A program made the position numbers and the translations under genes. Of a DNA stretch of 45,321 nt, positions 14,307 to 45,321 are shown piece by piece. The stretch comes from an uncultured Gammaproteobacteria bacterium (GTDB lineage: Bacteria > Patescibacteriota > Patescibacteriia > 2-01-FULL-39-33), in assembly GCA_964512625.1 (NCBI GenBank), contig CAZEKG010000005.1, positions 1 through 45,321 on the forward strand, read 5' to 3'. Positions within the stretch are counted from its first letter, which is position 1. Each line of letters begins with the position of its first letter. The notes beneath the pieces are model-generated. The model saw nothing but the letters and a program-made list of their open reading frames with translations. It made no database searches and was not told where the DNA came from.

Positions 14307-14330
14307 GCGGCAGGATCTCCTGCCGCTTTT
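14307..14330. terminator. intrinsic terminator after the Nudix gene
   Basis: GCGGCAGG-ATCT-CCTGCCGC followed by TTTT. Confidence 0.7.
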
Positions 14331-14722: not shown

Positions 14723-14736
14723 TACTACCCCGTATC

Positions 14737-15435
14737 TTAAACAAACTGACTAATAAAATAAATCGTGGCCGTCTCCGCCCTTAAAATCCTTAAGCCAAGG
14801 CTGACCGGTAAAATCCCTGAACGGCTCGCCAAAGAAACTTCCGCATCCTCATATCCGCCTTCCGGACCGACGAAAAGATGGACTTCTTCGGCGTTAATAT
14901 TGGGCGTATTTTTCATTTCTTTTTCAAAAGCGATATATTTATGGCCCGCTGACTCCTCCGCTAACTTAACTGCTTCGGGAAAGCCGATAGCCGGCGCCAA
15001 CTCCATCAACTTCGAACCGCCGCATTGCTCCGTCGCCTCCTTAATTATTTCCGAATATCTTTTCTGCTTAGCGGGCGTAATACCTCGAACGATTGAGCGC
15101 GCCGAAATAACCGGAATGAATAATGAAACTCCCAGCTCTGTCGCTTTTTGAACTAATAAATCCATTTTTTCGCCCTTAAGTAAGGATTGATAAAGGACGA
15201 TCTTATTCTTCAATTCACGACGACCAAGATGGCGATCAATTATTAGGAACCGCGCCTCTTCTTTTTTAAGATCAATCAGCTGAGAAACATACTCAAACCC
15301 GGATCCTTCAAAAACAATAAAACGCTCCCCTTCCTTGGCGCGCAAAACCTTAATTAACTGATTGATTATAACTTTATCCCGGCAAACGACATAATCGCCG
15401 TGAAAGGCGGCCTTCTCAATATAGAAACGGTGCAT
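14737..15435 (-). CDS. rsmE: 16S rRNA (uracil1498-N3)-methyltransferase
   Basis: Starts MHRFYI. C-terminal VGPEGGYEDAEV motif typical of RsmE. 232 aa. Confidence 0.8.
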   Translation of the reverse strand: MHRFYIEKAAFHGDYVVCRDKVIINQLIKVLRAKEGERFIVFEGSGFEYVSQLIDLKKEEARFLIIDRHLGRRELKNKIVLYQSLLKGEKMDLLVQKATELGVSLFIPVISARSIVRGITPAKQKRYSEIIKEATEQCGGSKLMELAPAIGFPEAVKLAEESAGHKYIAFEKEMKNTPNINAEEVHLFVGPEGGYEDAEVSLASRSGILPVSLGLRILRAETATIYFISQFV

Positions 15436-15502
15436 AAATTGAAATATATTGCCTATTTTGATAGAATTATTATAACATTTAAGAGCCTAAAAACACAAAG
15501 CC

Positions 15503-16735
15503 ATGTCTATCAAGACCATCCAAGATCTAATCAAAAAAGAAGTCTTAAGACAAAAGACTTCATTAGTCATGATCGCTTCGGAAAACTTCGCCTCTCCGGC
15601 TGTCCTCTCGGCCATGGGCTCGCCACTCTCTAATAAATACTCCGAAGGTTATCCTTATAAGCGCTATTATACCGGCAATCAATACATCGACGAAATAGAA
15701 GATGAATGCCGAGTCCTAGCCTTAAAAATGTTCGGCCTGAAAAACGATGATTACCAAGCTAACGTCCAGCCTCACAGCGGCTCCTCCGCCAATTTAGCCG
15801 TCTATCTCGGCCTGCTTACTCCGGGAGATAAAATCCTCGGCATGGATCTCGCTCATGGCGGCCATTTGACTCACGGCTCGCCAGTTAACTTTTCCGGCAA
15901 GCTTTTTAATTTCATCCATTACGGCGTCGACGAAAAAACCCATTTACTTGATTACGATAAAATAGAAAAAATCGCCTTAAAGGAAAAGCCGAGAATGATC
16001 GTTTGCGGCGCAACCGCTTATTCAAGAACGATTGATTTTAAAAAATTCCGAGCTATCACCGATAAAGTCGGAGCCTTGCTCCTGGCTGACATTTCCCATA
16101 TCGCCGGCTTAGTCATCGCCAAGGTCCATCCTTCCCCTTTTCCTTACGCCGATATCGTAACAACAACAACTCATAAAACTTTATCCGGACCACGCAGCGC
16201 CATCATTATTTCTAAGAAAGACCTAGCTTTAAAAATCGATAAGGCGGTTTTCCCGGGCATGCAAGGCGGACCGTTAGAGAACAGCATCGCCGCTAAGTCC
16301 AGCTGCTGCAGCGAATCATTAGAAAAAAAATTCAAAGATCAGCAATCTCAAGCCGTAAAAAATGCTAAATTTTTAGCCGAAATATTGAAGAAGAACGGCC
16401 TGAACTTAATTACCGGCGGAACGGACAATCATCTCCTTTTAATCGATTGTCGTAACTTAAAAATAACCGGTAAAGAAGCGGCCAACCTGCTTGCCGAAGC
16501 CAACATCTATACCAATGCCAATATGATTCCGTATGATCCGGCTACGCCGATGAACCCTTCCGGCCTAAGACTGGGTACTCCCGCTTTAAGCACTCGCGGT
16601 TTTAAAGAAAAAGAAATGGCTTTGGTCGGCCTTTGGATTTCTGAGATCTTAAAAAATCCGACTAACGAGCAATTAAGAAAAAGAATAAAAGCGGAAGTCG
16701 TAAGCCTAACAAAAAAATTTCCTATCTATAAATAA
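15503..16735 (+). CDS. glyA: serine hydroxymethyltransferase
   Basis: Strong SHMT pattern: ASENF, the SNKYSEGYPYKRYY region, and PLP-lysine region TTTTHKTLSGPR. Confidence 0.9.
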   Translation: MSIKTIQDLIKKEVLRQKTSLVMIASENFASPAVLSAMGSPLSNKYSEGYPYKRYYTGNQYIDEIEDECRVLALKMFGLKNDDYQANVQPHSGSSANLAVYLGLLTPGDKILGMDLAHGGHLTHGSPVNFSGKLFNFIHYGVDEKTHLLDYDKIEKIALKEKPRMIVCGATAYSRTIDFKKFRAITDKVGALLLADISHIAGLVIAKVHPSPFPYADIVTTTTHKTLSGPRSAIIISKKDLALKIDKAVFPGMQGGPLENSIAAKSSCCSESLEKKFKDQQSQAVKNAKFLAEILKKNGLNLITGGTDNHLLLIDCRNLKITGKEAANLLAEANIYTNANMIPYDPATPMNPSGLRLGTPALSTRGFKEKEMALVGLWISEILKNPTNEQLRKRIKAEVVSLTKKFPIYK

Positions 16736-16750
16736 AAAGTCGTAAGAAAA

Positions 16751-17575
16751 ATGAAAGAGAAAAAAATGGCCGAAATCCTGGACGGGAAATTATTGGCTGA
16801 AAAAATCAAGATAGAATTAAGAAGCAAGATACTATTGAAAACTAAAAAACCCGGCTTAGCGGCTATTTTGGTCGGCGACAATCCCGCTTCCGATCTTTAT
16901 GTAAAACTGAAAGAAAAATTCGCTAATGAAGTTGGGATCCAATTCCATAAATACCTTTGCAACGAAAAATGCTACCCGGATATTCCCGAATCAGGGCTGA
17001 TTGAATTAGTCGAATTCTTAAATAAAGATAAGGAGATAGACGGCATCCTTTTACAACTCCCCTTGCCGGAAAAATACGATACCCAAAAAATCATCAACAC
17101 TATTAATCCGGAAAAAGACGCTGACGGCTTCCATCCGAAGAATAAAACCGGCTTGGTTCCGCCGCCGATTGCCGCCGTTATCGAATTACTGAAAGAAACG
17201 GGCGAAAAATTAACCGCTAAAAATCTTCTAATCATCGGGAAAAGCGATATCTTCACCCTCGGCTTGGAAAAATATTTGAAAAAAGAATTGAAGATTAAAA
17301 AAATAGCTTCCGAAAAAGCCATTCCCAAAAACAGCGCCGAATACGATATTATTATCATCGGGCTCGGCCAAGCCCATATCTTAAAAAAGAAACATGTTAA
17401 GTCAGGAGCGATTATAATCGATATCGGCATCAACAAACTCGAAGGAAAAACCGTTGGTGATGTTGATCCGAAAGTCAGCGAGATCGCCGAATACCTTTCT
17501 CCAGTTCCCGGCGGCGTCGGCCCTTTAACCGTCGCCTGCTTAATGAGAAATGTTTATGAGCTAAGTAAAGAATAA
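16751..17575 (+). CDS. folD: bifunctional methylenetetrahydrofolate dehydrogenase/cyclohydrolase
   Basis: ILDGK start region, YVKLKEK, LQLPLP and PVPGGVGPLT motifs. The start may instead be ATG 16766. Confidence 0.88.
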   Translation: MKEKKMAEILDGKLLAEKIKIELRSKILLKTKKPGLAAILVGDNPASDLYVKLKEKFANEVGIQFHKYLCNEKCYPDIPESGLIELVEFLNKDKEIDGILLQLPLPEKYDTQKIINTINPEKDADGFHPKNKTGLVPPPIAAVIELLKETGEKLTAKNLLIIGKSDIFTLGLEKYLKKELKIKKIASEKAIPKNSAEYDIIIIGLGQAHILKKKHVKSGAIIIDIGINKLEGKTVGDVDPKVSEIAEYLSPVPGGVGPLTVACLMRNVYELSKE

Positions 17576-19630: not shown

Positions 19631-22600
19631 CTATTGAGCTTTGCCAGATACTTCAAAAACAGTTACCGAAAGCTTAGGTAAAGTATAGCGTATAACATTT
19701 CCTGAAATTGAAATATCCCGTTTATTTTCTACAATGTTATAAGGATTATTATTATTATCACTAGCTGGGCACCACCCCGTTAAACGGGTACCCTCATTAG
19801 TTACTTCATTATCAGAACAAATATTATCGCCACTGACTGAGAAAACCTTAACAGTAGGATTGGCCAAAAATCCATTGAATTTAACAGCGACACTGGTGGA
19901 AGTGGTTTGATTACGATTTATGAAAGTGATAAATATTTTATCACGGCTAGAATTTATAGATGACCATCCGCTAACATAAGGAATATCAAAACCGGAAGCA
20001 CTCGAGTCTACTGCTCCAAAACGATAAGGAGAAAAGGTATTGATCGTATCAGTTTTCAATAGCTTACTCCCTAGGTGATCAGCTATTATCTTATACACAT
20101 AATAAGAAGGTGTTTTTTCAATACTTGAATTATTTGCAAAATAAGGAGAATGAAAAACTAAAAAGCTATTACCAAAACGCTCACTAGTCATTAGCCAAGA
20201 ACCAGCAAATCTAACCCCTCCCTTTATTAGCGCTTCAAGCCAGCTAGCTCTATTAATAGCACTTCCAAGCCAATTATCTTCGCCATACCCCGGCTGAACA
20301 AAATACCCATATTCTGTCATTGAAAGATCAATATTTCTACCAAAAAGAAATTGATTTATTTTATAACGAGCATAATAAGGAGAATAAAAGAACTTATCAG
20401 CTCCTATTGTAGGATTACTAGAGCCATACGGAGGATTAACCCAATCTTTTTTATTAGCTGCTCCATAAATATATTTATTATTATCCGCTATCGGAATTCC
20501 TAACCAATGCTCTCGAGGAGTACTAACAGAATTAGGATAAGGATAATCGTGATATAAGCTAACAAAATTAATATAATTACCAGCTACCGGTAAAATTCTA
20601 TCATACCAGTCATTACTGCCGCCATTCTTAAAGGAAATAATTCCTATTTTAATATTACCATTAACCTCCTTAAACTTTTGACTATACTTTATGACTTCTT
20701 TAGCATAACCATCTATATTTTCAACTACTTTTTTAGTGATTGGATCGGTATAGCGCCAGCCACCCCCATAATAAGGTTCTACACCTATTTCAAAATAAAG
20801 TTGATTATAGGGCTGAACTCTTCCGCGAGCAGCTCTTAGATTAGCCCAATTATCAGAAGGCGTTTGGTGGTTCCAATCAAGGTTATTAGCTTTAACCAAA
20901 TAATCACTATCAGCCACACCATTCAAATACTCGACCATATCAGTATAATATTGTAAAGTTTGCCAATCCCAACCGTTACCATCAGAATTTTCTATATATC
21001 CTGGGCGAGTTTTATTTGGCAAAGGAATTCCCCAAACAATTGTAGTGCCTAACTTTTCAGCTATACCAGCTATATCATCTATAGTTCTCAAATTATTATC
21101 AAAAGTAAAGGAAGTGCTATAATCATGCTCCCAAGGCAAAAGAACATTATTACCAATATATTGAGAATCGACTCTTAAAGCATCTACATGAATTTTCCCC
21201 TGAACTCCTTCTATAGCTGAACCAACGGAACCAAAGTTGAGCCAGCCAAGATTAGTTCGAGTCGTTAATTTCTGTCGATCAATTTGATTACCATTTACCC
21301 AATAAGCACATTCGCCACTACCATAATAAACCTCCAGCGAGTAGTATTTATCTAATTCCATAGCGGATGAAAGAGCTAATTTAGTTTCTTTACCACTAGA
21401 ATTAATCGCTCTAACATCAAAGCGACGATCATTAGTTAGGCGAACTACAAAATCCGTACCACCACCCGCCTGACCAGCCGTCATTAATATCCAACCAGAA
21501 CTTGTAGCTTGAAAAGGTTGGGAACTATCTATCTTAACATCCAATCGGGCATAAGCAGGATTAGTTGCCTTAACGATATTAGTAGCAAGTCTTACATAAG
21601 CATTGGCTGCCTTATTAGTCTTAACAACCACTCCAGAATGACTCATATCAGTACCGTTCCAATAATCAACAGTAACTTTATTTCCTTTATCATAATCGAC
21701 TACTTCCTTACCTATGGCCCCACTCGCTTGATTATAAAATCCATCAGGTGTCACAAAATACTTAGTTTGTGAACAACCATCTAATCCATTTCTGCAATAC
21801 CCGGCATTAACAGAACGAGATTCAATTAAATTACTATCCCAGCGCTGGCCAGTGGAATCGTCTCCGGGATGCACCGTCCAACTACCTTTAGCCAAGCCAG
21901 AATCTTTAAAGTTATAATACAAAGACCAAAGCGCGCTACTATAAGAATTCCACTCTTCTCCGCCTATTACTGTAGGCCAAATATCGCCTATAACCTGATT
22001 AGCGTTAACTGTCATAATCGTATCAGCCGGACTTAAATCAATGATTTCTGAAAAACTAGTATTTGCTCGTCGAATAACTACACTATCTACATAAAAAGAA
22101 GCCCCTTTAGAAAGTAGGGTACTAGAAGCTACTAAATAAATTTTATGGAATTTTCCAATAAACTTTCCTCCAATTAACTCTCTGGGTATGGTTATTTTTT
22201 GATATTGTTCGGTTACAATTCCTCCAGCGAACTGAGAAGTAATGTCAATATAATCGGACTCATCATTAGGACCAGTATAATTCAAAATCACTCCCAAAGC
22301 TTTAGGAGTACCAGAAGTATTAAAATAACCATTACTTGAACGGATATAAAACTCTAAAGAATCTCCCGAATTCATATTGACTGTGTTCTGGTTATAATAG
22401 GTAGCCTTAAAATGCCATTTATCAGGAAAAGAAAATAATAAAGACTGTTGACCGCTATAAGCATATTGCTGGTCATTAACTAATATCGCTGTAGAATTAA
22501 ATAGAGTCGTACTAGAATTAGAGCTTAATTCATCAAAAAGCACTGTTGTGGAACTCGAAATATCAACGCCAGCCAATACGGCCGGCTTAATATTGTCAAC

Positions 22601-22711
22601 GATCATCCAGCCATAAGAAACTACAAATACCATAGGAATAGTTGCAAATAGGAGCAAGCCTATTTTTTGCCAAGTTTTTAACTCGACAAAACTAATTTGT
22701 TTGGTGAGCAT
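19631..22711 (-). CDS. large membrane-anchored extracellular protein with a probable clan GH-A-like glycoside hydrolase domain
   Basis: 1026 aa with an N-terminal TM anchor. Candidate acid/base motif EIGVEPY (NEP-like) and nucleophile motif MTEYGYF (TExG) ~150 aa apart, as in (beta/alpha)8 GH-A enzymes. N-terminal beta-rich regions. Confidence 0.45.
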   Translation of the reverse strand: MLTKQISFVELKTWQKIGLLLFATIPMVFVVSYGWMIVDNIKPAVLAGVDISSSTTVLFDELSSNSSTTLFNSTAILVNDQQYAYSGQQSLLFSFPDKWHFKATYYNQNTVNMNSGDSLEFYIRSSNGYFNTSGTPKALGVILNYTGPNDESDYIDITSQFAGGIVTEQYQKITIPRELIGGKFIGKFHKIYLVASSTLLSKGASFYVDSVVIRRANTSFSEIIDLSPADTIMTVNANQVIGDIWPTVIGGEEWNSYSSALWSLYYNFKDSGLAKGSWTVHPGDDSTGQRWDSNLIESRSVNAGYCRNGLDGCSQTKYFVTPDGFYNQASGAIGKEVVDYDKGNKVTVDYWNGTDMSHSGVVVKTNKAANAYVRLATNIVKATNPAYARLDVKIDSSQPFQATSSGWILMTAGQAGGGTDFVVRLTNDRRFDVRAINSSGKETKLALSSAMELDKYYSLEVYYGSGECAYWVNGNQIDRQKLTTRTNLGWLNFGSVGSAIEGVQGKIHVDALRVDSQYIGNNVLLPWEHDYSTSFTFDNNLRTIDDIAGIAEKLGTTIVWGIPLPNKTRPGYIENSDGNGWDWQTLQYYTDMVEYLNGVADSDYLVKANNLDWNHQTPSDNWANLRAARGRVQPYNQLYFEIGVEPYYGGGWRYTDPITKKVVENIDGYAKEVIKYSQKFKEVNGNIKIGIISFKNGGSNDWYDRILPVAGNYINFVSLYHDYPYPNSVSTPREHWLGIPIADNNKYIYGAANKKDWVNPPYGSSNPTIGADKFFYSPYYARYKINQFLFGRNIDLSMTEYGYFVQPGYGEDNWLGSAINRASWLEALIKGGVRFAGSWLMTSERFGNSFLVFHSPYFANNSSIEKTPSYYVYKIIADHLGSKLLKTDTINTFSPYRFGAVDSSASGFDIPYVSGWSSINSSRDKIFITFINRNQTTSTSVAVKFNGFLANPTVKVFSVSGDNICSDNEVTNEGTRLTGWCPASDNNNNPYNIVENKRDISISGNVIRYTLPKLSVTVFEVSGKAQ

Positions 22712-36990: not shown

Positions 36991-37019
36991 AACTTTCTTT
37001 ATCCTATCTTATTTTTAAT

Positions 37020-37065
37020 TTTTCCTCAAGTTTCACAATCAAGGAGATTGCGAAGCTAATTGGAA
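37020..37065. repeat. left copy of the 46-bp imperfect direct repeat flanking the island
   Basis: TTTTCCTCAAG-N3-CACAA-N14-AAGCTAATTGGAA. The right copy at 44382-44427 has an identical 11-mer, 5-mer and 12/13-mer at identical spacing. Confidence 0.6.
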
Positions 37066-37097
37066 GGAGGAGCAACAAGTACCACTTGCGCTCCTCC
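37066..37097 (-). terminator. strong hairpin immediately after the last island gene
   Basis: GGAGGAGC-AA-CAAG...CTTG-C-GCTCCTCC lies 10 nt downstream of the stop at 37107 and abuts the left direct repeat. The U-tract is weak (UUCCAAUU). Confidence 0.45.
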
Positions 37098-37106
37098 GTG
37101 AAACCA

Positions 37107-37703
37107 CTAAATAACGGCGGAGGACAAAACCCGCTCTTGACGGCTCGTCCTCTCATTAATCGAGGTGAGGGCGCTATCCGGCACATCCGGAATTCGCGTC
37201 TCGCCACGCTCTTGAGTCGCCGAGTAGTATCCACTCTCGGCAATCCACGCGATCAACTCTATCATTCCAGCACCACTCGCGCGGGGTAGAACCTCAAGAG
37301 CTGTAAGCGCCGCCGGTGAGAAGGAGGATCCGAAGATCTTGTCGCCACAGAAGTAGTACCAGCTGTAGCCGGATACTACCACGACGCCTTTCGCCCGAAG
37401 AATCGCTTCACCCTGCTCGCGTGGCAAGGCATTCCCCGCGCGAAGTTCTTGCGCCTCGGCCGCGATGGTTTTTTTCACTTCCATCATCAAGTCGAGCGGC
37501 GCGAACTCTGCGCGGTACATTTGGCGATTATTCTTGTCGACTTTCCCGTCAACTGGAATCAACCGCACCCTCACCACCTCGTCCGGCTTGACCAAACGAG
37601 GCATAAAAACTATTGACCGATTGTAAGAGGAGATGCACTGTCCGGTCTCCTCGTATTTCCCTCCGCGCTCGGCGCGGAGGGTTGCAACGATTTGTTCCGT
37701 CAT
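37107..37703 (-). CDS. hypothetical protein (198 aa), possible N-terminal TRAM/OB-like fold
   Basis: AAGGAGG lies 5 nt upstream of ATG 37703 (MTEQIVATL...). The ORF-track extension to 37835 overlaps the vWA gene. SIVFMPRLVKPDEVVRVRLIPV loosely resembles TRAM strands. No confident family. Confidence 0.6.
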   Translation of the reverse strand: MTEQIVATLRAERGGKYEETGQCISSYNRSIVFMPRLVKPDEVVRVRLIPVDGKVDKNNRQMYRAEFAPLDLMMEVKKTIAAEAQELRAGNALPREQGEAILRAKGVVVVSGYSWYYFCGDKIFGSSFSPAALTALEVLPRASGAGMIELIAWIAESGYYSATQERGETRIPDVPDSALTSINERTSRQERVLSSAVI

Positions 37704-37713
37704 GCTACCTCCT

Positions 37714-39336
37714 TTACAAGTTCTCGAACACCGCTGCGGCGCTTTCATCAGTGAACGACGATACACGCTCGACGCGATTGGCGAATTCTCGGACACTTTC
37801 GTCGGAGCTGGAGCCAACGTCGCAGAGGACTGCAAACACGTTGACTTTTAACTTCTCCTTGGTCGCCCGGAACTCACGAAGGAACTCCCTCGAAACCGCG
37901 CACTCGCCGTCAGTGATGAAGGCGATGTCGGCTTTGGTGAGCCCTTCGACGCGGATCGTTTGCATCGCTTCGGACAGCGGACGTTCGAAGTCCGTACCGC
38001 CCGCATCGAGAAACGTCTCCGCGATTTCCAGTATCGCTTCGGCCGACAGCCGACCGCCCTTGTACACCCGGGTTACGTTCAGTGAGGAACGCGATCCGAA
38101 ATGCACCCAAACAAACGACCGCTTCTGGAGTTTGGCATAGTGAGCCATGGCGAGAACCATTGCCTTTGCCCACCAACGCTTCTCTCCGTCCATCGAACCG
38201 GAGCCGTCTTCGCAGACGACGACCGGACCGTGGCCAAGCTTCTTCTTCGCCTGCTCGCCGCGCAGCCGGAGTTCACCGCGAGCCCAGCGCGTGAGCGCCT
38301 TCATGCGGAGTGCCGGATGCGAGATCGAAACAAGCTCGGAGTTAACGGCGCGTTTAATGTCCCGACCCATTTCCGGCATCGTGACACGCACACCCTCTGC
38401 CTTCTCCTTCGACCGGGCCTTGCGAGCCGCGATCTGCCGGAGTCGACCAAGGAGCGCCGCGAACTTGCGCAGAGCTTCGCTTTTCTTCATCCGCTCAAGA
38501 ACCCCGAGAGCTTCGGGAATCCCTTTGCGAACAAGCTCGCCTTCATCGAGGCCCCAAGATTCGAGCGTGTCGGATATCTCCTCCACTTTCTCCTTGGCCT
38601 CTTTCGCGGCGGCGATGCCGACACGAGCGAGTTCACGAAGCTTGTCCACCGCCTTATCGCTTCCGGGTTGCCCCAAAAGCTCCTCGACAACAGACTCGAC
38701 TGCTTGCTTGGCCGCATCCGCTTTGGCTCTCGCCGCAGCAGCGCGACCCGCGTATTGGTCAGCGAGTTCTTGCGCTTCTTCGAGCGACATGCCAGAGCCG
38801 TTGCCGGACTGGTTGCCGCTCTGCCCGCCTTGGGTGGCTTGCGCCGCTTCCGCGAGCATGTTCGCCGCCGAGCTTTCGACCTCTGCCTGTTGGGCTTCGG
38901 CTTCCGCTTCGTCGGCGTCGTCCTGCTTCTGCGCAGCTTCCTGAAGTTTCTCTTGGTCCTTCTCGGACACGTTTTCGAGGACCGATTGACCCATCGTCAA
39001 CGTACCAAGCACGGACTTCAGATCGGAATACTGCGTCTGGGCATGAAGTTGCTCGTAGGTCGATGTCGCCATTGTACCCTTGAGAATCTCACCCCAGTAC
39101 CGGCGATCGGCCGGCAGTTCCTCACGCACCACAGGCGTTTCCGCCCACAGCGCGTGATAAAGATCGCACAGCGATCCTGCGAATCCGGGGAGTCGGCTTT
39201 CGCCTTGCTCCTCGACTTCGCTGATCGCTGGCGCATTCTCGCGATGTCGCAGGAAGCGGAGCGCCGTGAAGGCGTCCGCATCCGTGACGAGGAGCTTTTG
39301 GAGCTCCTGCCGCGCGAGTGTTGGTGCCTTCTGCAT
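37714..39336 (-). CDS. ViaA-like von Willebrand factor A (vWA) protein with acidic/coiled-coil middle region
   Basis: The C-terminal vWA has a MIDAS motif (VVVCEDGSGSMDG, then GGTDF, FITDGE), collinear with my recollection of E. coli ViaA (IVCVDTSGSMGG...GGTD...ISDF). AGGAGG 6 nt upstream of the ATG. Immediately follows the RavA-like gene. Confidence 0.8.
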   Translation of the reverse strand: MQKAPTLARQELQKLLVTDADAFTALRFLRHRENAPAISEVEEQGESRLPGFAGSLCDLYHALWAETPVVREELPADRRYWGEILKGTMATSTYEQLHAQTQYSDLKSVLGTLTMGQSVLENVSEKDQEKLQEAAQKQDDADEAEAEAQQAEVESSAANMLAEAAQATQGGQSGNQSGNGSGMSLEEAQELADQYAGRAAAARAKADAAKQAVESVVEELLGQPGSDKAVDKLRELARVGIAAAKEAKEKVEEISDTLESWGLDEGELVRKGIPEALGVLERMKKSEALRKFAALLGRLRQIAARKARSKEKAEGVRVTMPEMGRDIKRAVNSELVSISHPALRMKALTRWARGELRLRGEQAKKKLGHGPVVVCEDGSGSMDGEKRWWAKAMVLAMAHYAKLQKRSFVWVHFGSRSSLNVTRVYKGGRLSAEAILEIAETFLDAGGTDFERPLSEAMQTIRVEGLTKADIAFITDGECAVSREFLREFRATKEKLKVNVFAVLCDVGSSSDESVREFANRVERVSSFTDESAAAVFENL

Positions 39337-39346
39337 TCTCCACCTC

Positions 39347-40561
39347 CTATGGTTTGACCCGGAATTTCGTCCCGAGCATTGCGTTCACCGTTTCCTGCTT
39401 CTCCCCGTCGAGCTGCTTGCGAAGAACGAGGATTGCAGACTTCTCGTCGCCAGTGACTTCGCCCGAGAGACGGTCGAGCTCGCGCTCGGCGTCTTCGAAC
39501 TGTGCCAGTGCGGCAACGAGTTTGTTGCGATCGCCGCCCTTAGCTTCCGCGACGGTCCCAGCCGGAGCCAGTAAAGTGTCGACCACCTCCTGCGCATCCG
39601 AAAGGGGCGTCCGCGTGAGCGGGGCGACCTTCGCCTTGACGATCGGGATCTGCTCGGGAGTGTCCCAGAGCAGAAATTCGAGTACCCTCAGATCGGTCTT
39701 GCTGACCTTCGAGCGCCCGTCGAGGAGTGCCGATGCCTGAAGGACATCAAACACGCGCCCGAACCGGCGGTCATCTTTCCAGAGCCAGTCGAAACCGGCC
39801 TGGTCTTCGTCGAGAAGCTGCTGGTACAGGTCGAGGACGATCTCGACGATATCGTCCGAAACTTCAACCATCAGCCGCCCCTCGCGCAGCCATTCGATGT
39901 CTTCAAGAGAGATCTTCACTGGAGCAGAAGCCGTGCCGCGAGCCCGGTTGATACGGGCGGTGACGAGCGACTTCTTGCCGGCGCGATCGAGAGAGTTCGC
40001 TACGGCGCGAATGGTCATGCGAGACCACATCGCGCCGAGGTTGCCCTCGGGATCGGGAAGCTCATTGCTGGCCGCGACGAACGCGAGGAGTGGAGTTTTC
40101 ATCATCCGTCCCTCGTGTCGCACGCCGTCACCTTTCGACAGGTCGAGCAGGGTTTGCAGAACTCGAGGCTCCGCTTTCCAGATCTCGTCCGCGAAAAGTA
40201 CGTGTGCGCTTGCAGCGCGTCCCAGTGTGTCGCGCGTGCGAATCGACTTCACACCATTGGCATCGGTCGACTCCTCGATGCGAGTTTCCTCGACGAGGAG
40301 CTGCTCGACCGAAACGATCGTCGGCATGAGAGCGTCGTAGAACACGGCGCCGTTGATATTCCGCGCGACGTCCTGCACTGTGCCGGTCTTGTTGATCCCC
40401 GGCGAACCGAGGAAAAAGGCCGGCCGGCCGGACACTAGCGACAGCATGGTCGCGCGGATCAGGGCCTCGCGGCCGATGTTCCGCACGGCGACGTCTGCCA
40501 CCACATTCGCAACCTTCGGCGCAAGCGCCAGTGCTGCGTCAAGCATATCTTGGCTCATCAT
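39347..40561 (-). CDS. RavA-like MoxR-family AAA+ ATPase (404 aa)
   Basis: Walker A GSPGINKT and Walker B [9 protein letters not shown]. The segments [32 protein letters not shown] and [23 protein letters not shown] closely parallel E. coli RavA as I recall it ([53 protein letters not shown]). Start set at ATG 40561, where AAGGAAAGGA lies upstream and ATGA overlaps the stop of the preceding ORF. Confidence 0.85.
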   Translation of the reverse strand: [404 protein letters not shown]

Positions 40562-40863
40562 TCTGTCCTTTCCTTGCCCGTGGTTATACCGTGGGCGTGG
40601 GTACCCAAGAGCGTCCTCACGGCTTCGTTGAAGATATCCTCGCCATGATCCCGTCGAATCACGGCGAGCCAGCGCGTCGCTTTCGCAACGCCGATTGCCT
40701 GCATACCTCCGACACCGTGCTTTCGCGCGGCAATGGAGGCCAGATCGAAGGCCGAGCTTGGTGACTTGTCCCGCGCGATGCAGACGCACTCCTTGTGGAG
40801 TTCGTCTTGCACCTGCGAGAGCACACCGGCCCGGAGCTGGAGTTCAGCAAGCGGTCGATTCAT
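40558..40863 (-). CDS. hypothetical protein (101 aa), translationally coupled to the RavA-like gene
   Basis: AGGAGG lies 6 nt upstream of ATG 40863. Its TGA stop overlaps the ATG of the AAA+ gene (ATGA). The start overlaps the 3' end of the HD gene by ~20 nt. No family recognised. Confidence 0.55.
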   Translation of the reverse strand: MNRPLAELQLRAGVLSQVQDELHKECVCIARDKSPSSAFDLASIAARKHGVGGMQAIGVAKATRWLAVIRRDHGEDIFNEAVRTLLGTHAHGITTGKERTE

Positions 40864-41416
40864 ATTCAACCTCCTGCAAGAGCTCCTCGATCAGGGGCGC
40901 ACCGTCCGGGTCGATCTCGTGCCACAGCGGGAGAGCTGTCCGAATCTCCGCGAGCTTGCGCTTGCGGAACTCGGGTGGCGCGTGCCGCAGAGTGTTGAGA
41001 TTGTCCAGCCGGTCGGATCGCTTCACGATGACCGCCAAGCGGCCACCGGCGGCCACACGGCGAAGGTAAACCTCATCGGGTTCCTCTTCCTCCTCGTGAC
41101 TCACCGCGCGAACGATCCGCGCCACTCGCTCGCCGAACTGCTCGGCAAGCTCATTTTCCGTCGTGTCCGTGTCCTCGATGGTGTCGTGGAGCACGGCAGC
41201 GGCGAGAAGGTCAGTGGCTTCGTCCTCGCTCAACCGCAACTCGGCAGGAATGTCGTCCTGTTCATAGCGATCGACGAAACGTGCCGCAATTTCTCCCACC
41301 CTCATCAGGTGGTCATACTGCGACTCGCCGCCCGGGCGTTTCTGCCCGTCGTGGACGAGGCCGACAAGGGCAACTGCCTTTGCGACCTTCGGTATGGCTT
41401 TGAGTTCTTTGGGCAT
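40844..41416 (-). CDS. RelA/SpoT-homologue HD-domain hydrolase (small alarmone hydrolase-like, 190 aa)
   Basis: YDHLMRVGEIA plus AAAVLHDTIEDTDTTENELAEQFGERVARIVRAVS match the (p)ppGpp-hydrolase HD pattern (H...LLHDxxEDT...FG..VA.LV.GVT). No synthetase domain is present. AGGAGG 6 nt upstream of the ATG. Confidence 0.8.
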   Translation of the reverse strand: MPKELKAIPKVAKAVALVGLVHDGQKRPGGESQYDHLMRVGEIAARFVDRYEQDDIPAELRLSEDEATDLLAAAVLHDTIEDTDTTENELAEQFGERVARIVRAVSHEEEEEPDEVYLRRVAAGGRLAVIVKRSDRLDNLNTLRHAPPEFRKRKLAEIRTALPLWHEIDPDGAPLIEELLQEVEYESTAC

Positions 41417-41447
41417 TGTTGCCCTCCTTTCGTTAAAACCCTATCAA

Positions 41448-41465
41448 CTTACCAATATTGGCAAG
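41448..41465. promoter_or_regulatory. operator-like 18-bp palindrome upstream of the HD gene
   Basis: CTTACCAATATTGGCAAG (one mismatched pair) lies 32-49 nt upstream of ATG 41416, in a locally AT-rich gap. Confidence 0.35.
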
Positions 41466-41475
41466 CTGAATAAGG

Positions 41476-41509
41476 TCGGCGAGCTGTTAATACCACTCAC
41501 GCTCGCCGA
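41476..41509 (-). terminator. 9-bp-stem hairpin between the 564-aa gene and the HD gene
   Basis: TCGGCGAGC-N16-GCTCGCCGA lies 24 nt after the stop at 41533. The U-tract is weak, so it may be a partial terminator or a processing site. Confidence 0.35.
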
Positions 41510-41532
41510 ACTAAACCTAACCAAAGAACTTC

Positions 41533-43227
41533 TTACCATGGACACCTTTTCGTTTCGGTGTCCGGGATCGTCTTTTCCCGCCCCCATATGAGAGCGTGGG
41601 TGTTCCAGAACTCACGCGACGTGTCGTCGGCGAACTTAATATCCCACGGCTCGGAAGGAGCGCGGCCGCCCACGAACGCGGTCATAAGGATGTAAGCACC
41701 CCCATACGTGCGTTTGAAGCACGCAGTGACTTTGTTCGTCGGCTCAGGATCGCGGTCTTTGACGAAACGCGTGAGTCCGAGCCGATTCGGCCGTTGGGCG
41801 AAAACGATATTGTCGCCCGGGTTGGTATGGACGCAGATCGTCTCTCCGACGATGCGTCCGAATTCAACCTCGTCACAGAAAGTCTCGCGTCCCTCCGAGG
41901 AGATCTGCGAAAGCGTTTCGGTGAGGAGCGGCATGACGCTCTCGTGCGAGGCGACGTGGCTGTCCTTGCGGTCAACCACGAGTTCGCCCGACTTGAGCCG
42001 CCCGACTTGCGGTGTATCCCAGCGGAGCAGGTCGAACGAGACCGGAACGATCTCACCGACCTTCTCCTCGGCACCGGCGACGACAACCGCAGGCCCCGCG
42101 AAGGGATGTACCTCGTCCCACTTGCGATCCCCGAGGGAGGGCTGCGCCCTACCGGATTCGACCGGCCAGAGCATTGCCACCCACGGAGCACCGGCGCGAA
42201 CGTAGCTGCGCACGATGGTGGCATCCAACCACATCGGGGGACCGTCGTGGGCGAGCACGACGGGCTTCTCAATATCGACCACTGGCGGGGTGACGCCTTT
42301 CAGCATCTCCGCCGTGATAAAACACATTGGCTTGAATTTCACCAATGTGTATTCGGGGAGTTCGAGAACCTCCCACGCGACATTCCCATTCCCGGCACCC
42401 TGCGGCGTCACCTCGGGGATACGGATGTACCCCTTGCTGACGTCGTAGAGTTCGACCGCACCGGAGAGCCGCGCAGCGTAGGCCGAAGCCAAGATCGCCG
42501 CGCGAACATTCCAGATACGGACGACTTCCAGCTTTGCAACCGCAGCGGTAAGCCGCAGCGCGGGCTGGAGGTGATGGGGACGCACGCCCAAGAACGGATC
42601 GTTCTTGTCGACAACATCAAGGCGTCCCACGAGGGTCGCACCGTTGACATTGCACAACATCTCACCTTCGGTCATATCCGCATTACTGCGGATGATTTCC
42701 CTAAGGCGATCGACGACCGCGTTGAGCGTGAGCGACTGGATGGTCTGCCCGCGCTCGAGCCCGCTGATCCGGCCTCGGACGATATTATCGCCCTGGTCGG
42801 GATAGAGCTCGCAGGTGCCATGAAGCACCGAATCGAGCTCGGCGAGTACTCGGACGTCGTTTTGCGTGGCAAACTCATGCCACGCGCTGATCTTTTCGTG
42901 ATCGGACGACAGGATGATGCACCCGTCGCACGCCGCGAAAATCCGGGCATTCTCCGGCGACATAACGCCGCCGGTGTCGACGAGAACGAGCGGTTGCTCG
43001 TTAAAACGGATCGCGTCGACCATCGAGGACACGAAGTCCTCGGAGAACTTGCCCTTTTGGCGAACGACCTGAACCAGGTCTTGATCGCCAAAATTCGACC
43101 AGTGCCACTCCCCATCAGGAGCGGCAAAAGCGAGATAAAACGAATCTGGCGGCAAAAGCCGCATCAGATTCGCCAAAAATACGGACTTCCCCGAATGGGG
43201 TTGTCCACACACTATGATTCGGCGCAT
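41533..43227 (-). CDS. multidomain protein: N-terminal P-loop NTPase, putative Csx3-like domain(s) and an unknown C-terminal domain (564 aa)
   Basis: Walker A GQPHSGKS and Walker-B-like LVLVDTGG. Residues ~285-395 (YTLVKFKP..ITAEMLKGVTPPVVDIEKPVVLAHDGPPMWL....Y.....WVAMLWP) parallel the Csx3 signature as I remember it from AF1864 (FTLIHFEI..IKPEILKEIEIPSVDTRKGVVISGRGPIWL...Y....FVAVYDP). A weaker copy lies at ~190-275. GGGAGGG 4 nt upstream of the ATG. Confidence 0.7.
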   Translation of the reverse strand: MRRIIVCGQPHSGKSVFLANLMRLLPPDSFYLAFAAPDGEWHWSNFGDQDLVQVVRQKGKFSEDFVSSMVDAIRFNEQPLVLVDTGGVMSPENARIFAACDGCIILSSDHEKISAWHEFATQNDVRVLAELDSVLHGTCELYPDQGDNIVRGRISGLERGQTIQSLTLNAVVDRLREIIRSNADMTEGEMLCNVNGATLVGRLDVVDKNDPFLGVRPHHLQPALRLTAAVAKLEVVRIWNVRAAILASAYAARLSGAVELYDVSKGYIRIPEVTPQGAGNGNVAWEVLELPEYTLVKFKPMCFITAEMLKGVTPPVVDIEKPVVLAHDGPPMWLDATIVRSYVRAGAPWVAMLWPVESGRAQPSLGDRKWDEVHPFAGPAVVVAGAEEKVGEIVPVSFDLLRWDTPQVGRLKSGELVVDRKDSHVASHESVMPLLTETLSQISSEGRETFCDEVEFGRIVGETICVHTNPGDNIVFAQRPNRLGLTRFVKDRDPEPTNKVTACFKRTYGGAYILMTAFVGGRAPSEPWDIKFADDTSREFWNTHALIWGREKTIPDTETKRCPW

Positions 43228-43242
43228 GGCGCCCTCCCTTCT

Positions 43243-43677
43243 TTAGGAACCCCATTTCTGACAACCACCCGAATCGGCGGGCTCGAAGTACACGAACTCG
43301 TCGACCTCCGATAAAGTCAACTGCACGCGGCTCTGACTGAGCCGGTCTTTCGTCGCCTCCGCGACACGGATCACCGCATCACGGAAGTCACCGAGCTTTT
43401 CGGGCCCTATGAACTTCGGGTTAGAGTTGCCGGATACTACGGCGATGACCTCGCCGTCCTTCGGGCACCCGAACGAAGTCGGGTACACGACACGGCCCGG
43501 CGTCACCGCCGCGCCAACAAGAATGCCAGAGGCCTTGAATTCCTCCTCCAGCGCCTCACGCCAGGCGTGGGCGACGAGCCCGTCGGCGGTCGTGCCCTCA
43601 GGGAGCCCGTTGTCATGCCCATACCCGGGCACAACGCCAAAAACTGCGGAAAACGCGATCGCGACATTCTTGTTCAT
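43243..43677 (-). CDS. hypothetical protein (144 aa)
   Basis: AAAGGAGAG lies upstream of ATG 43677 (MNKNVAIAF...). The stop is 15 nt before the next gene's ATG. No family recognised. Confidence 0.6.
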   Translation of the reverse strand: MNKNVAIAFSAVFGVVPGYGHDNGLPEGTTADGLVAHAWREALEEEFKASGILVGAAVTPGRVVYPTSFGCPKDGEVIAVVSGNSNPKFIGPEKLGDFRDAVIRVAEATKDRLSQSRVQLTLSEVDEFVYFEPADSGGCQKWGS

Positions 43678-43861
43678 ACTCTCTCCTTTGCCGCATCGAG
43701 CGGCCATTGTTAAAAACCATACCAACGCGCAATTCAATTATTGTACGCTGGATGTGGCGGGCGAGGATTAGAACCAACTAACCTCGCCCCCAAAACCTTT
43801 ACTAGTGTGCCGTGCCACACTAACAACCCAGAACTTCCTCTCTACACGGGAGAGGTGCCGA

Positions 43862-44257
43862 TCAGCCCGCCTTGATGATGCGGGTTACGGCGTACACTTG
43901 CCCGTTCCCGTCGCGAACGGTCCCATCCTTGGGACCGGTGCCAGGAACGAACACGTCGTCCCGGCCGGCGACCTCGGGGCGGCCGGCGATCAGCGCCGAC
44001 ACCAGGTAGACGGTGTCGGGCTGCGGCTCGGGGAGCCCCTCGACCGCGCCGTAGCTGGTGCGATCGTAGACCGCCACTCCGTTGATTGGGGCGAGCGCGC
44101 CGCCGGGCGTCGTCGAGACGCGGGCGGGATTGGGTTTGCCGTCGCTGCCCTTGCGGGCCTCGATGACGAGGTCGGTGGAATCCGGCTCAGCCGCCGTGTT
44201 GGCGGTGTTGATCCGGATCCGCATCGGGTGCGGATTCAGGTTGATAAACGTCGTCAT
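43862..44257 (-). CDS. hypothetical protein (131 aa), first gene of the island
   Basis: AGGAGA lies 7 nt upstream of ATG 44257. MTTFINLNPHPMRI...YLVSALIA...DVFVPG...VRDGNGQVYAV looks like a small conserved beta-rich family that I cannot name. Confidence 0.6.
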   Translation of the reverse strand: MTTFINLNPHPMRIRINTANTAAEPDSTDLVIEARKGSDGKPNPARVSTTPGGALAPINGVAVYDRTSYGAVEGLPEPQPDTVYLVSALIAGRPEVAGRDDVFVPGTGPKDGTVRDGNGQVYAVTRIIKAG

Positions 44258-44381
44258 GGCTTGCTCTCCTTTTTGTGCTTGCCATCATGCTGCGTTCCGC
44301 GCAGCGCGGTTTTAGAAGATCACAAATATTTTGCAACCCCTCCCAAACTTATGAAAATCATAAATTTAGGAGGAATAACAA

Positions 44382-44427
44382 TTTTCCTCAAGCCCCACAA
44401 ACCCATTACTTGCAAAGCCAATTGGAA
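44382..44427. repeat. right copy of the 46-bp imperfect direct repeat flanking the island
   Basis: TTTTCCTCAAG-N3-CACAA-N14-AAGCCAATTGGAA. About 33/46 identical to 37020-37065, with the same internal spacing. Confidence 0.6.
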
Positions 44428-44433
44428 AAACAT

Positions 44434-44580
44434 TTAGCCCGACTGCCGAAGATTATTAGAAAATCCCCGGGCAGCCGAGCCTATATTAGAAAATAATAAT
44501 AGAATTAATATGAATATAAATGCTAAAACTTTTCCTATAAGTAGTTCCCATTCAATTGTCAAAGTCCGTCTTACTCTCAT
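44434..44580 (-). CDS. 48-codon hydrophobic peptide ORF (candidate small membrane protein or type-I-toxin-like)
   Basis: MRVRRTLTIEWELLIGKVLAFIFILILLLFSNIGSAARGFSNNLRQSG has one TM segment. The ATG and the preceding GAGAGG are complementary to an upstream CCAUCCUCU. The ORF ends inside a terminator hairpin. Below the ORF-track cut-off. Confidence 0.3.
   Translation of the reverse strand: MRVRRTLTIEWELLIGKVLAFIFILILLLFSNIGSAARGFSNNLRQSG
44437..44480 (-). terminator. 11-bp-stem hairpin plus U-run, minus-strand specific
   Basis: On the minus strand, GCUCGGCUGCC-N22-GGCAGUCGGGC (two G.U pairs that are C.A mismatches on the plus strand) is followed by UAAAUGUUUUU. Confidence 0.45.
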
Positions 44581-44985
44581 CCTCTCACCATAAGCTCCTA
44601 TAACCTGAGGCCTGATAAAGACATTTCTTTACCTAATTGACTGGTTAGATCGATTAGGTAAATCGTCTCTTTATTAGAAAACGACTGCGCCGTTTAATCT
44701 CTCAAGAGGATGGGTATCCCGCTTAAGCGGGAAGCCATCGAGCTCTTAGGATTAAGCCTTCTTAACACTCATTAAGAAGTTCGCTCTCTTCTAGCGAAAA
44801 CGCGCGAGTGATTTACTTATTCAAGGACTACCTCTCTTCGATCGCAGACCTTGATAAATAATTATTTAAAGTGCATTTCTCCTCTTCGGAGAGCCGGTTA
44901 AGGAAGCGACAAGCTTTTCCCTAACCCGCTCTCCGGCCCGAAGCCGAATAAAAACTCTCTTCGGGCGGAGAGAGTTTTTAATCAT
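44570..44985. ncRNA. hairpin-dense, ORF-free region: candidate structured RNA or long structured leader of unknown class
   Basis: At least ten perfect or near-perfect hairpins, including 44629-44661, 44718-44731, 44757-44779, 44780-44798, 44821-44854 and 44888-44934. A long-range helix pairs 44576-44585 with 44705-44714. No ORF of 60 codons or more on either strand. The strand is unresolved. Confidence 0.4.
44951..44979. terminator. bidirectional intrinsic terminator hairpin
   Basis: AAAAACTCTCT-TCGGGCGG-AGAGAGTTTTT has A/T runs on both sides, so it is terminator-like in either orientation. Confidence 0.6.
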
Positions 44986-45055
44986 AGCTATTTAGTTTTA
45001 CGCCCCTTGGAAAGCTCTCTCCTTCTTTCCTTGGGTCATTTGATCTTACACAAGC

Positions 45056-45084
45056 ATTATAGCATAAGCTTAGCTTTTTGTCAA
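45056..45084 (-). promoter_or_regulatory. perfect consensus sigma70 promoter firing leftwards into the hairpin-dense locus
   Basis: The minus strand reads TTGACA (45084-45079), exactly 17 nt, then TATAAT (45061-45056). Confidence 0.65.
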
Positions 45085-45178
45085 TAAAGCGTATCATATA
45101 TAAATGATAATATAGCAATATTACCTAATTTAAGATATACTTATCCACATATTTTAGCTATATTTTTGTCATAATAAT

Positions 45179-45207
45179 TTGACAAGTAAATATCAATAAT
45201 ATATAAT
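45179..45207 (+). promoter_or_regulatory. perfect consensus sigma70 promoter firing rightwards toward the window edge
   Basis: TTGACA (45179-45184), 17 nt, TATAAT (45202-45207). A 31-nt near-perfect inverted repeat (45214-45244) sits at the predicted transcript start. Confidence 0.6.
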
Positions 45208-45321
45208 TAAAACAGGAAAAACACTTTATGTAAAGTATTTTCCTTTAAAAAATTTAACCATTTAATTAACTTATAAAAACCGTATGTATGAGCAATCCTT
45301 AGTCCAATCGGGCTTAACTGA

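Follow-up and report, generated by a model that had tools for sequence, protein, structure and literature searches.

In MoxR-vWA ternary systems, the metal-ion-dependent adhesion site (MIDAS) of a vWA protein holds a peptide of its partner and a MoxR-type ATPase remodels the complex (Kaur, Burroughs, Iyer, and Aravind 2020, eLife 9:e52696; PMC7159879). A second group of described genes, the off-switch genes of type III CRISPR systems, includes the Unk01 family, which is the Crn4 ring-nuclease family (PMC12830947). We analyzed contig CAZEKG010000005.1 of assembly GCA_964512625.1 (45,321 nt, the whole of which we call the window), in which eight minus-strand genes at 37066-44381 form a GC-rich island with relatives of both groups (g1-g8; g8 is transcribed first, and the genes span 44257 down to 37107). 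We favor, with moderate confidence, the reading that this island is the horizontally exchanged cargo of a variable locus that is specific to the candidate phyla radiation (CPR, or Patescibacteria) and linked to a TrmB-like gene, and that the cargo encodes a messenger-linked MoxR-vWA conflict module. CPR bacteria make up a large share of bacterial diversity and are mostly uncultured epibionts with tiny genomes; to our knowledge, the ways in which they deal with conflict, be it with phages or hosts, are little known.

The CPR-wide TrmB-linked locus with swappable cargo is previously undescribed. Full-text literature searches returned no paper that joins CPR or Patescibacteria with Csx3 or ring nucleases, and Csx3 and MoxR were mentioned together only in the 2020 survey of ternary systems, without the present architecture. 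The locus type recurs across CPR classes, centers on a domain family of ~1000 clusters without Pfam entry or structural match, is preceded by long structured RNAs without Rfam family, and brings relatives of type III CRISPR off-switch enzymes into a CRISPR-free context.

Composition and boundaries of the island

The original prediction placed a compositional discontinuity at ~37.1 and ~44.3 kb, which is borne out by sliding-window GC, by GC at third codon positions (GC3), and by tetranucleotide z-scores. GC content is 55-72% in the island vs. 36-49% in host sequence; in 1-kb windows it is 0.55-0.62 over 37001-44000 and 0.35-0.45 in the rest of the window, and in 100-nt windows it steps at about 37050 and at about 44250-44300. 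GC3 per gene ranges from 0.65 to 0.87 in the eight island genes and from 0.24 to 0.52 in the 29 host open reading frames (ORFs), and first-position GC of the island genes is also raised (0.58-0.74). Tetranucleotide z-scores correlate at 0.80 when one half of the host sequence is compared with the other, and at only 0.20-0.31 when the island is compared with the host. Translation signals differ as well. A Shine-Dalgarno (SD) motif of the AGGAGG/GGAGG/AAGGA type lies 5-10 nt 5′ of the ATG in 8/8 island genes and in 0/29 host ORFs scored at the longest-ORF start (a cruder caller that chooses the best of several candidate starts gives at most 4/35 in the host), so that the SD contrast drawn originally holds; all eight ATG starts then listed (37703, 39336, 40561, 40863, 41416, 43227, 43677, and 44257) exist. 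Such a systematic break in composition and translation signal is not predicted by simple amelioration models, and it is a practical warning too: a GC/SD island in a CPR bin need not be contamination.

The island coordinates originally given coincide exactly with the interval that separates two copies of an imperfect direct repeat of 46 nt, the left one at 37020..37065 (TTTTCCTCAAG...AATTGGAA) and the right one at 44382..44427. The copies are identical at 33/46 positions, each abuts a GC step, and only 0.8% of random 400-nt window pairs equal their local-alignment score. A terminator-like hairpin (37065..37097, minus strand; GGAGGAGC...GCTCCTCC) lies 10 nt past the stop codon of g1; its tail is only weakly T-rich, and it may serve as terminator. 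Integrase, transposase, and capsid families match no island protein, in agreement with the absence of mobility genes noted at the outset, and family scans of proteins found no recombinase in or beside the island. The sole tRNA of the window is at 5405-5488.

The host is a CPR bacterium without close sequenced relative, because the best matches of its FtsK, at no more than 62% identity, are in metagenome-assembled genomes (MAGs) named Patescibacteria group, Falkowbacteria, and Buchananbacteria. Pfam agrees with the original recA, ftsK, and efp calls. The contig with the best FtsK relative (L027, 62%) keeps the order ftsK-HTH-recA-efp-S18-ssb-S6 (HTH, helix-turn-helix) and has other large surface-protein genes upstream; because these genes differ and FtsK identity is only 62%, L027 cannot act as an empty-site allele. 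No CRISPR-like array was found in the 45-kb window, and none of the Cas10, CD-NTase, mCpol, and CARF families among its 29 non-island ORFs.

Two side observations concern the host sequence. PADLOC returned strong matches on the 29 host ORFs (1-36847), namely SspH-type (8e-54), MADS mad8 (7.5e-35) and mad2 (4.1e-23), DEDDh (1.9e-32), and PDC-S48, which may reflect housekeeping ATPases and nucleases. The ORF at 19631-22711 (minus strand, 1026 residues) is an outlier in the opposite direction (GC 0.36 and GC3 0.24, vs. a host GC3 of ~0.45); it has one weak Alpha-L-AF_C match and may be another acquired surface or glycan gene.

A TrmB-linked locus with exchangeable cargo

For comparison, related contigs were fetched (loci with L numbers). 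Full-length homologues of the anchor protein g6 number >55 at 55-91% identity. Among species-representative genomes, 5/5 full-length g6 copies are in Patescibacteria MAGs (Adlerbacteria, Saccharibacteria, and unclassified “Patescibacteria group”), and stand-alone copies of the g6 C-terminal domain (CTD) are mostly in CPR MAGs. The order g8-g7-g6-g5-g4-g3-g2-g1, or a close variant of it, is found in L001/L002, L004/L005 (the 1.03-Mb contig Ga0209864_1000001), L009, L013, L014, L031, L033, and L080. Long contigs with the cassette include, besides Ga0209864_1000001, the 600-kb NODE_1 of ERZ17906313. This recurrence bears on the explanation that assembly joined a high-GC fragment of some other organism into a CPR contig. 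Both junctions are abrupt, as a chimera would have them, but the architecture recurs in dozens of independent assemblies (JGI, ENA, NCBI, Logan), the 1.03-Mb contig included, the host-type sequence to the right of the island contains the conserved 9-mer and the TrmB-like start also seen at related loci, and a direct repeat brackets the block. We find a chimera barely credible.

In all non-redundant CTD loci whose flank is long enough (22/22), a TrmB-like gene of ~260 residues lies 0.6-7 kb upstream of the CTD gene, on the opposite strand (among relatives that lack a TrmB gene, L001 is closest); this TrmB-like gene often converges on a large GNAT-like gene with a 4-nt overlap. GC of the TrmB-like gene follows the far flank, and the neighboring CTD gene is 10-28 points higher in 16/22 loci. 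Across 231 locus pairs, TrmB identity does not correlate with CTD identity (r = 0.15). Each of four TrmB orthologues picked irrespective of the cassette (L081-L084) is accompanied by a long spacer and by a divergent operon of raised GC (4/4), the cargo of which is unrelated to the window cassette and mostly without Pfam match; therefore, the slot collects GC-rich cargo in general. This unrelated cargo (L081 3000-7500, L082 7355-8287, L083 5247-8086, and L084 4681-8052) looks like a reservoir of uncharacterized CPR accessory genes.

The locus is made of four parts: a divergently transcribed TrmB-like gene of host composition, a host-composition spacer of ~1 kb, a GC-rich operon on one strand with SD motifs, and a terminator-like hairpin. 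In the many CPR assemblies that have the operon, it nearly always follows a divergent TrmB-like gene and a strongly structured spacer of 0.6-1 kb. The spacer contains two consensus promoters, the conserved 9-mer, and a structured leader of ~600 nt. In the window, the promoter toward the cassette (45056..45084, minus strand) is a perfect sigma-70 consensus, TTGACA-17-TATAAT with TG, and the promoter toward the TrmB-like gene (45179..45207, plus strand), which reads out of the window, is a perfect TTGACA-17-TATAAT. Between these divergent promoters stands a DnaA-box-like 9-mer, TTATCCACA (45141..45149, plus strand), a candidate operator present in single copy in the window. The 9-mer occurs in the same orientation in 11/23 TrmB-cassette spacers, vs. 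24 occurrences in 914 kb of DNA from all fetched loci, and is invariant in spacer alignment A4. Its sequence is a perfect DnaA box, and it could serve the TrmB-like protein as operator or DnaA as binding site. The divergent gene starts at 45284 on the plus strand, and the window ends 38 nt into it (45284..45321). Its 12 codons, MYEQSLVQSGLT, were compared with the TrmB-like starts MYEKYLLDASLT (L018), MYEKILQEIGLN (L023), and MYEKIINNLGIS (L007); TrmB-like N-termini follow the pattern MYEK..L...GL[STN]. Together with the promoter and the 9-mer, this start suggests that the last ORF of the window is the TrmB-like regulator.

The leader candidate (44455..45050, minus strand), between the promoter and the cassette, is of host composition and ends in a terminator-like hairpin at 44479-44466. 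Its minimum free energy is -199.6, vs. -157.8 ± 6.6 for shuffled sequences (z = -6.4; z = -8.2 on 650 nt), and the spacers of L004, L017, L018, L022, L023, and L026 give z from -3.4 to -11.3, with the sense strand stronger in 5/6. The leader has no ORF above 48 residues; Rfam gave no match to the window spacer at E ≤ 1 and, when six related loci were scanned, none that reached the gathering threshold. Sequence homology between the window leader and other leaders is limited to 26 nt at the cassette edge. Some sub-groups of spacers have sequence blocks in common, and L018, L022, L023, and L026 have a hairpin with compensatory changes (GGACA/TGTCC, GGAGA/TCTCC, and GGATA/TATCT). The leader is a candidate for a new class of leader or noncoding RNA.

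Cargo moves horizontally among CPR genomes and recombines by module, and the window copy was drawn from the same cassette pool as the copies of L001 and L080. The window island is 86% identical to L001 at the nucleotide level over exactly 37122-44341, and not beyond, and 87-95% identical to L080, a high-GC CPR contig, over 37442-43251. The flanks of L080 (rny, clpP, and tig; GC3 0.59-0.82) have no similarity to the window. The closest relative along the island switches among L001, L080, and L004, module by module, and the window copy reads as a recombination mosaic of L001-, L080-, and L004-like segments. The distal flank varies too: surface proteins in the window, tuf in L005, type II secretion genes in L009, and trigger factor in L080. 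In L004/L005, a block of ~13 kb (4202-17000) with GNAT-like gene, TrmB-like gene, spacer, and cassette lies between fusA and tuf-rpsJ and splits an otherwise conserved str-operon neighborhood; therefore, CPR lineages differ in where the whole block sits, and not only in where its cargo does.

A large serine recombinase directly follows g1 in L001/L002 only (Resolvase, Recombinase, and Zn_ribbon_recom domains; GC about 0.44). There, 3-4 extra GC-rich orphan ORFs precede the cassette, and this arrangement of orphan ORFs and recombinase (L001 6861-8513 and 16575-17906, L002 alike) may be a mobile-element context of the same cassette. The island of L005 is bracketed by a different 21-nt direct repeat, whose score is reached by 0/300 random pairs. 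Universal att-like repeats were considered and rejected, with none in 11 loci beyond the window and L005. The MAG contigs of L017 and L019 (~31-35% GC) are labelled uncultured Gammaproteobacteria and carry a CPR-type TrmB-spacer-CTD-MoxR-vWA locus; either these bins may be mislabelled taxonomically, or the locus may extend past the CPR.

Cassette GC is above that of the flanks in 10/12 host contexts and equal to it in L009 (host 0.60-0.64) and L012; it is never under host GC, and has its upper limit near 0.62-0.67. One might explain such a pattern by vertical inheritance under a local process or selection, such as GC-biased gene conversion at a recombination hotspot or selection on the mRNA, that keeps the cargo rich in GC and SD motifs. 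That cargo is never GC-poorer than the host in ~26 loci, four of them with unrelated cargo, would be expected under this explanation, as would the scaling of island GC with host GC. The same explanation sits badly with cassettes 87-95% identical in nucleotide sequence in hosts with unrelated flanks, with the uncorrelated TrmB and CTD identities, and with the first codon position, which is shifted too, so that amino-acid composition differs; moreover, there is no GC excess in hosts of 57-64% GC (L009, L022, and L080), which a reservoir ceiling of ~65% fits better. We hold vertical inheritance of this kind to be very improbable. The GC pattern of the cargo fits import from a reservoir of ~60-65% GC with later amelioration, and CPR lineages of high GC (L009, L022, and L080) exist. 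In the low-GC, ameliorated cassette of L007 the SD motifs are lost (0/6), which fits adaptation after arrival; cross-locus SD statistics come from a generic ORF caller that picks up antisense ORFs in GC-rich DNA as noise, and are rough bounds only.

The original prediction attributed the island to recent acquisition from a high-GC, SD-using donor, be it a bacterium, plasmid, phage, or, speculatively, the host of the epibiont. Foreign composition and horizontal gain stand, the latter supported by the 87-95% identical L080 cassette between unrelated flanks; a source outside the CPR finds no backing. A single recent import from a donor of that kind would explain the high GC3 and universal SD use in an SD-poor host, as well as cassette-intrinsic SD motifs that are present even where the CPR host is itself high in GC, and distant AAA-Csx3 homologues (~30%, without CTD) do occur in Chloroflexota-type MAGs (Anaerolineae, Roseilinea, and Thermoflexus). 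Yet the homologues at 44-91% identity that have organism names, the full-length ones among them, are all Patescibacteria, the nearest relatives (L080 and L001) are themselves beside CPR-type flanks, and the TrmB-linked slot in 22/22 loci speaks against a single event. Viral carriers were not found: IMG/VR scans with g6, g2, and g3 gave no close relative, only vWA relatives of ~30% identity. We therefore regard a single recent import from outside the CPR as quite improbable. Relatives do carry the same genes, but these are mostly GC-richer than the core genome around them, so the expectation that relatives with core composition would refute acquisition applies only in part. Since most relatives have the same TrmB-linked slot and a GC-richer cargo, the island represents a recurrent property of the locus type and not a single recent accident. 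Phage origin was rejected, the GenBank phage matches being generic MoxR-vWA tail-assembly pairs or stand-alone jumbo-phage CTD ORFs.

Cassette genes and the messenger-linked reading

The original prediction missed what the genes encode, which is homologues of type III CRISPR ancillary proteins together with MoxR-vWA. The anchor protein g6 (41533..43227, minus strand, 564 residues) consists of a P-loop NTPase (residues 1-~180), a linker, a Csx3 fold (~281-356), and the CTD (~405-564). It matches PADLOC AAA-Csx3 (2.8e-45) and, by PDB profile, AfCsx3 (2.6e-9). In its AlphaFold2 model (mean predicted local distance difference test score, pLDDT, 92.4), Foldseek aligns the middle domain with AfCsx3/Crn3 (3wzg and 6yud; template-modelling score, TM, 0.83-0.86, root-mean-square deviation about 2.1 Å) and the N-terminus with SIMIBI-type NTPases. 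The CTD (window 41536-42015), modelled alone with pLDDT 91.5, has no fold match in the PDB (best E = 0.17, TM < 0.2) or BFVD, and no Pfam model. It matches phrog_23674 and stand-alone ORFs of the jumbo phages CBB, GAP32, and Yersinia fHe-Yen9-04. Its relatives form 988 clusters in a 50%-identity library, mostly stand-alone proteins of 150-200 residues, with tandem copies and fusions besides; ten fused homologues are without Pfam domain, so that the fusion partners are uninformative. Invariant in the family (set P0347-P0494) are D419, H424, H428, R479, R482, T486, R487, and K490, together with an E, a W, and a further D.

The ATPase and its partner are adjacent. Protein g3 (39347..40561, minus strand, 404 residues) is a MoxR-type AAA+ ATPase according to Pfam (bpMoxR 5.9e-18, score 65.1 with cut-off 27; AAA_lid_8 5.4e-13; AAA_5 1.1e-7) and NCBIfam (RavA 3.9e-32), with Walker A GSPGINKT and Walker B FADE. 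Protein g2 (37714..39336, minus strand, 540 residues) has a helical N-terminal part and a C-terminal vWA domain, with the MIDAS motif DGSGS and a later TDGE read from the translation. Its Pfam scores are marginally below cut-off (VWA_2 9.8e-6, 26.6 bits with cut-off 27; VWA_CoxE 2.2e-5, 24.4 with cut-off 26.4); it also matches NCBIfam ViaA (1.8e-10) and, across residues 37-534, phrog_24053 (6.4e-54), and phage 0305phi8-36 and Acidianus two-tailed virus encode relatives of 26-34% identity. Two orphans complete this part of the operon. The small g4 (40558..40863, minus strand, 101 residues), conserved in its position between the HD and MoxR genes, has no match in Pfam, PADLOC, PHROG, or NCBIfam scans, and homologues of 52-87% identity in L001, L004, L009, L013, L014, and L080. 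The conserved last cassette gene, g1 (37107..37703, minus strand, 198 residues, with the SD motif aaaggaggt upstream), has no Pfam, PADLOC, PHROG, NCBIfam, or PDB sequence match; its homologues in L001, L004, L009, L013, and L014 are 36-83% identical, and some are fused to longer proteins, which are all without Pfam match and give no function.

The remaining three genes are related to messenger-degrading enzymes. Protein g8 (43862..44257, minus strand, 131 residues; PADLOC Unk_01 1.5e-11) falls by sequence in the Unk01/Crn4 family. Crn4 conserves T13, H15, and R112 (A. procaprae numbering; PMC12830947); in the full-length alignment of g8 with Crn4a (9sma, E = 0.002, residues 3-126), the catalytic histidine of the “TPH” motif and the C-terminal arginine are retained (LNPH; VTR), and Thr13 is replaced by Asn. 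Protein g7 (43243..43677, minus strand, 144 residues) is a PII-like protein whose PDB sequence matches point to the family of SAM-AMP lyases and SAM (S-adenosylmethionine) lyases (9gad/9gab and 9lqd, respectively, about 6e-17 over residues 6-125; PADLOC Mvol_0529-fam 1.8e-19). It retains equivalents of the catalytic E71 and of C66, N81, F84, and Q108. Because the alignment shows R, Q, G, and L in place of the specificity contacts T110, T112, S50, and Y48, the substrate may differ and be SAM, SAM-AMP, or another compound. Protein g5 (40844..41416, minus strand, 190 residues; Pfam HD_4 1.2e-12) has the size of a single-domain small alarmone hydrolase and the motif (L)HDTIEDT of the HDxxED type; PDB sequence matches (1.9e-11 to 1e-4) to Rel/SpoT hydrolase domains, small alarmone hydrolases, MESH1, and (p)ppApp hydrolase assign it to the family of RelA/SpoT homologues (RSH) and small alarmone hydrolases.

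Across loci, a minimal core can be distinguished from what is added to it. ORF clustering of 23 loci gave a stand-alone CTD with MoxR and vWA in six (L017-L020, L026, and L063). Extended loci fuse the CTD to the P-loop and Csx3 domains and have in their 5′ slot, depending on the locus, Crn4, the lyase, Csx3 as a separate protein, an additional P-loop protein associated with Csx3, or a STIV_B116-like protein (AcrIII-1/Crn2). Other variants carry a DEAH/HA2 helicase or a radical-SAM and AAA set.

We propose that the conserved triad of CTD, MoxR AAA+ ATPase, and vWA partner would work in a manner akin to ternary conflict systems: by analogy, the vWA MIDAS site would hold a peptide of the CTD protein, and MoxR would remodel the complex. 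The catalytically degenerate Csx3 fold, joined to the CTD together with the P-loop NTPase, may sense a nucleotide ligand, and three enzymes with relatives that destroy immune or stress messengers, namely Crn4 (cyclic oligoadenylates, cOA), the SAM-AMP lyase, and the RSH-type HD hydrolase (alarmones), would set or reset the signal level. The CTD-fused Csx3-like and P-loop domains and the rotating cOA, SAM-AMP, and alarmone hydrolases would in this way link the module to nucleotide second messengers, and the TrmB-like protein together with read-through of the structured leader may gate expression of the operon. The module would be either a defence or abortive system with its signal from elsewhere, or a counter-defence device.

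The latter option can be taken further, as an operon whose purpose is to destroy the immune messengers of others (cOA, SAM-AMP, and alarmones), to the benefit of a mobile element that carries it or of an epibiotic CPR cell that attacks a host with type III CRISPR, CBASS (cyclic-oligonucleotide-based antiphage signaling), or toxSAS (toxic small alarmone synthetases). Three to four messenger-degrading families rotate through one slot (Crn4, SAM-AMP lyase, Csx3, and B116/AcrIII-1), and phage and plasmid Crn4 and SAM-AMP lyase have been proposed as anti-CRISPRs (PMC12830947, PMC12255297). The absence of CRISPR array and cyclase from the 45-kb window, the CTD homologues of jumbo phages, and the large serine recombinase adjoining the L001/L002 cassette are also in line with such an arsenal. 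It does not readily account for the six loci in which the CTD-MoxR-vWA core lies beside TrmB without any degrading enzyme; furthermore, the cassette is chromosomal (contigs up to 1.03 Mb), IMG/VR contigs lack a close relative, and no secretion signal or delivery system is linked to the cassette. We consider a counter-defence arsenal possible but doubtful.

A broader combination, which we regard as unlikely, is a phylum-wide, integron-like cargo slot together with a dedicated messenger-quenching cassette used by epibiotic CPR cells. The TrmB-like regulator and the large structured RNA leader would guard the slot, which would gather GC-rich, SD-bearing cassettes from an unsampled reservoir, and an enzyme of the Crn4 type, one of the SAM-AMP-lyase type, an alarmone hydrolase, and an orphan-fold enzyme would be assembled or activated by MoxR-vWA. 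If this were true, epibiotic CPR cells would silence the cOA, SAM-AMP, or alarmone immunity of the bacteria they parasitize or of rival elements, and the lasting foreign composition and SD use would reflect lifestyle and not recent arrival.

The reading we favor, that of a messenger-linked MoxR-vWA conflict module exchanged as cargo of the TrmB-linked locus, has to be weighed against several results that count against it. Neither the operon nor the 45 kb contains a signal generator (Cas10, CD-NTase, or mCpol) or a recognized effector, and the signaling logic is therefore incomplete. In Crn3/Csx3, H57, H60, H80, D69, and R71 are absolutely conserved and S44-G45-R46 form the loop that binds cyclic tetra-adenylate, cA4 (PMC7371418), and the Csx3-like domain of g6 has H57→R, H60→V/A, D69→W/V, R71→V, and SGR→AHD in a hidden Markov model (HMM) alignment, so that it may bind no cyclic oligoadenylate. 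No function could be assigned by searches to g1, g4, the CTD, or the N-terminal half of g2. Only 12 residues are available for identifying the last ORF of the window as TrmB, and flanking direct repeats are found in only 2/14 loci tested (the window and L005). Finally, the host genes of L080 have no SD motifs and every L080 cassette gene has one, and the tetranucleotide correlation of the L080 cassette with its own flanks is 0.22. The SD motif is thus intrinsic to the cassette even in the compositionally matched L080, and a simple story of a high-GC CPR donor is therefore insufficient. L080 as the donor, a candidate we considered, is weakened by the same mismatch and SD contrast. The true reservoir may be unsampled, or SD use may be selected within the tightly packed operon.

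Comparison with described systems

Compared with type III CRISPR off-switch genes (Crn4/Unk01, Crn3/Csx3, AAA-Csx3 fusions, SAM-AMP lyase, and Crn2/AcrIII-1), the island resembles them in g8, g7, and the middle domain of g6 by sequence or fold, and retains the Crn4 His and Arg and the SAM-AMP lyase E71; related loci swap a Csx3 or B116-like gene into the same position. It differs from them in that neither the operon nor the 45-kb window contains a Cas10, a CRISPR array, or a CARF/SAVED effector, in that the Csx3 domain of g6 has lost residues absolutely conserved in Crn3, and in the placement of these genes inside a MoxR-vWA operon of CPR-restricted distribution. The anti-CRISPR enzymes of phages and plasmids (AcrIII-1, Crn4b, and the candidate AcrIIIB4) are likewise small stand-alone messenger degraders outside CRISPR loci, on mobile DNA, but here the genes are chromosomal and co-transcribed with five others, and they were found on no IMG/VR contig.

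Variable-cargo loci, such as integron cassettes, defence-island hotspots, and capsule/O-antigen loci, have in common with the present locus a conserved anchor gene and promoter region beside differing cargo; here that cargo is of atypical composition, recombines module-wise, and has a short direct repeat in two loci. Unlike in those systems, the anchor has no integrase (the serine recombinase is confined to L001/L002) and consists of a TrmB-like regulator together with a large GNAT-like gene; attC-like elements were not found, and the cargo is GC-richer than the host or equal to it, never poorer.

The resemblance to MoxR-vWA ternary systems lies in a MoxR AAA+ protein (g3) whose best Pfam model is bpMoxR, the beta-propeller-subtype model, in an adjoining vWA protein with an intact MIDAS-type DxSxS, and in a conserved third protein with variable accreted enzymes, the cargo differing among relatives. 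No Pfam match to a VMAP, iSTAND, FtsH, or beta-propeller third component was found on the eight island proteins. The vWA match of g2 extends to residue 488/540 and therefore leaves no room for a propeller, so that the vWA domain here is C-terminal, with no effector or propeller behind it. In contrast to the described systems, the third component is an orphan-fold domain of ~160 residues, alone or fused to a P-loop NTPase and Csx3, and the hosts are unicellular, ultra-small CPR bacteria, whereas the survey cited at the outset stresses multicellular lineages. The present locus differs, too, in being tied to a TrmB-like regulator and a long structured leader.

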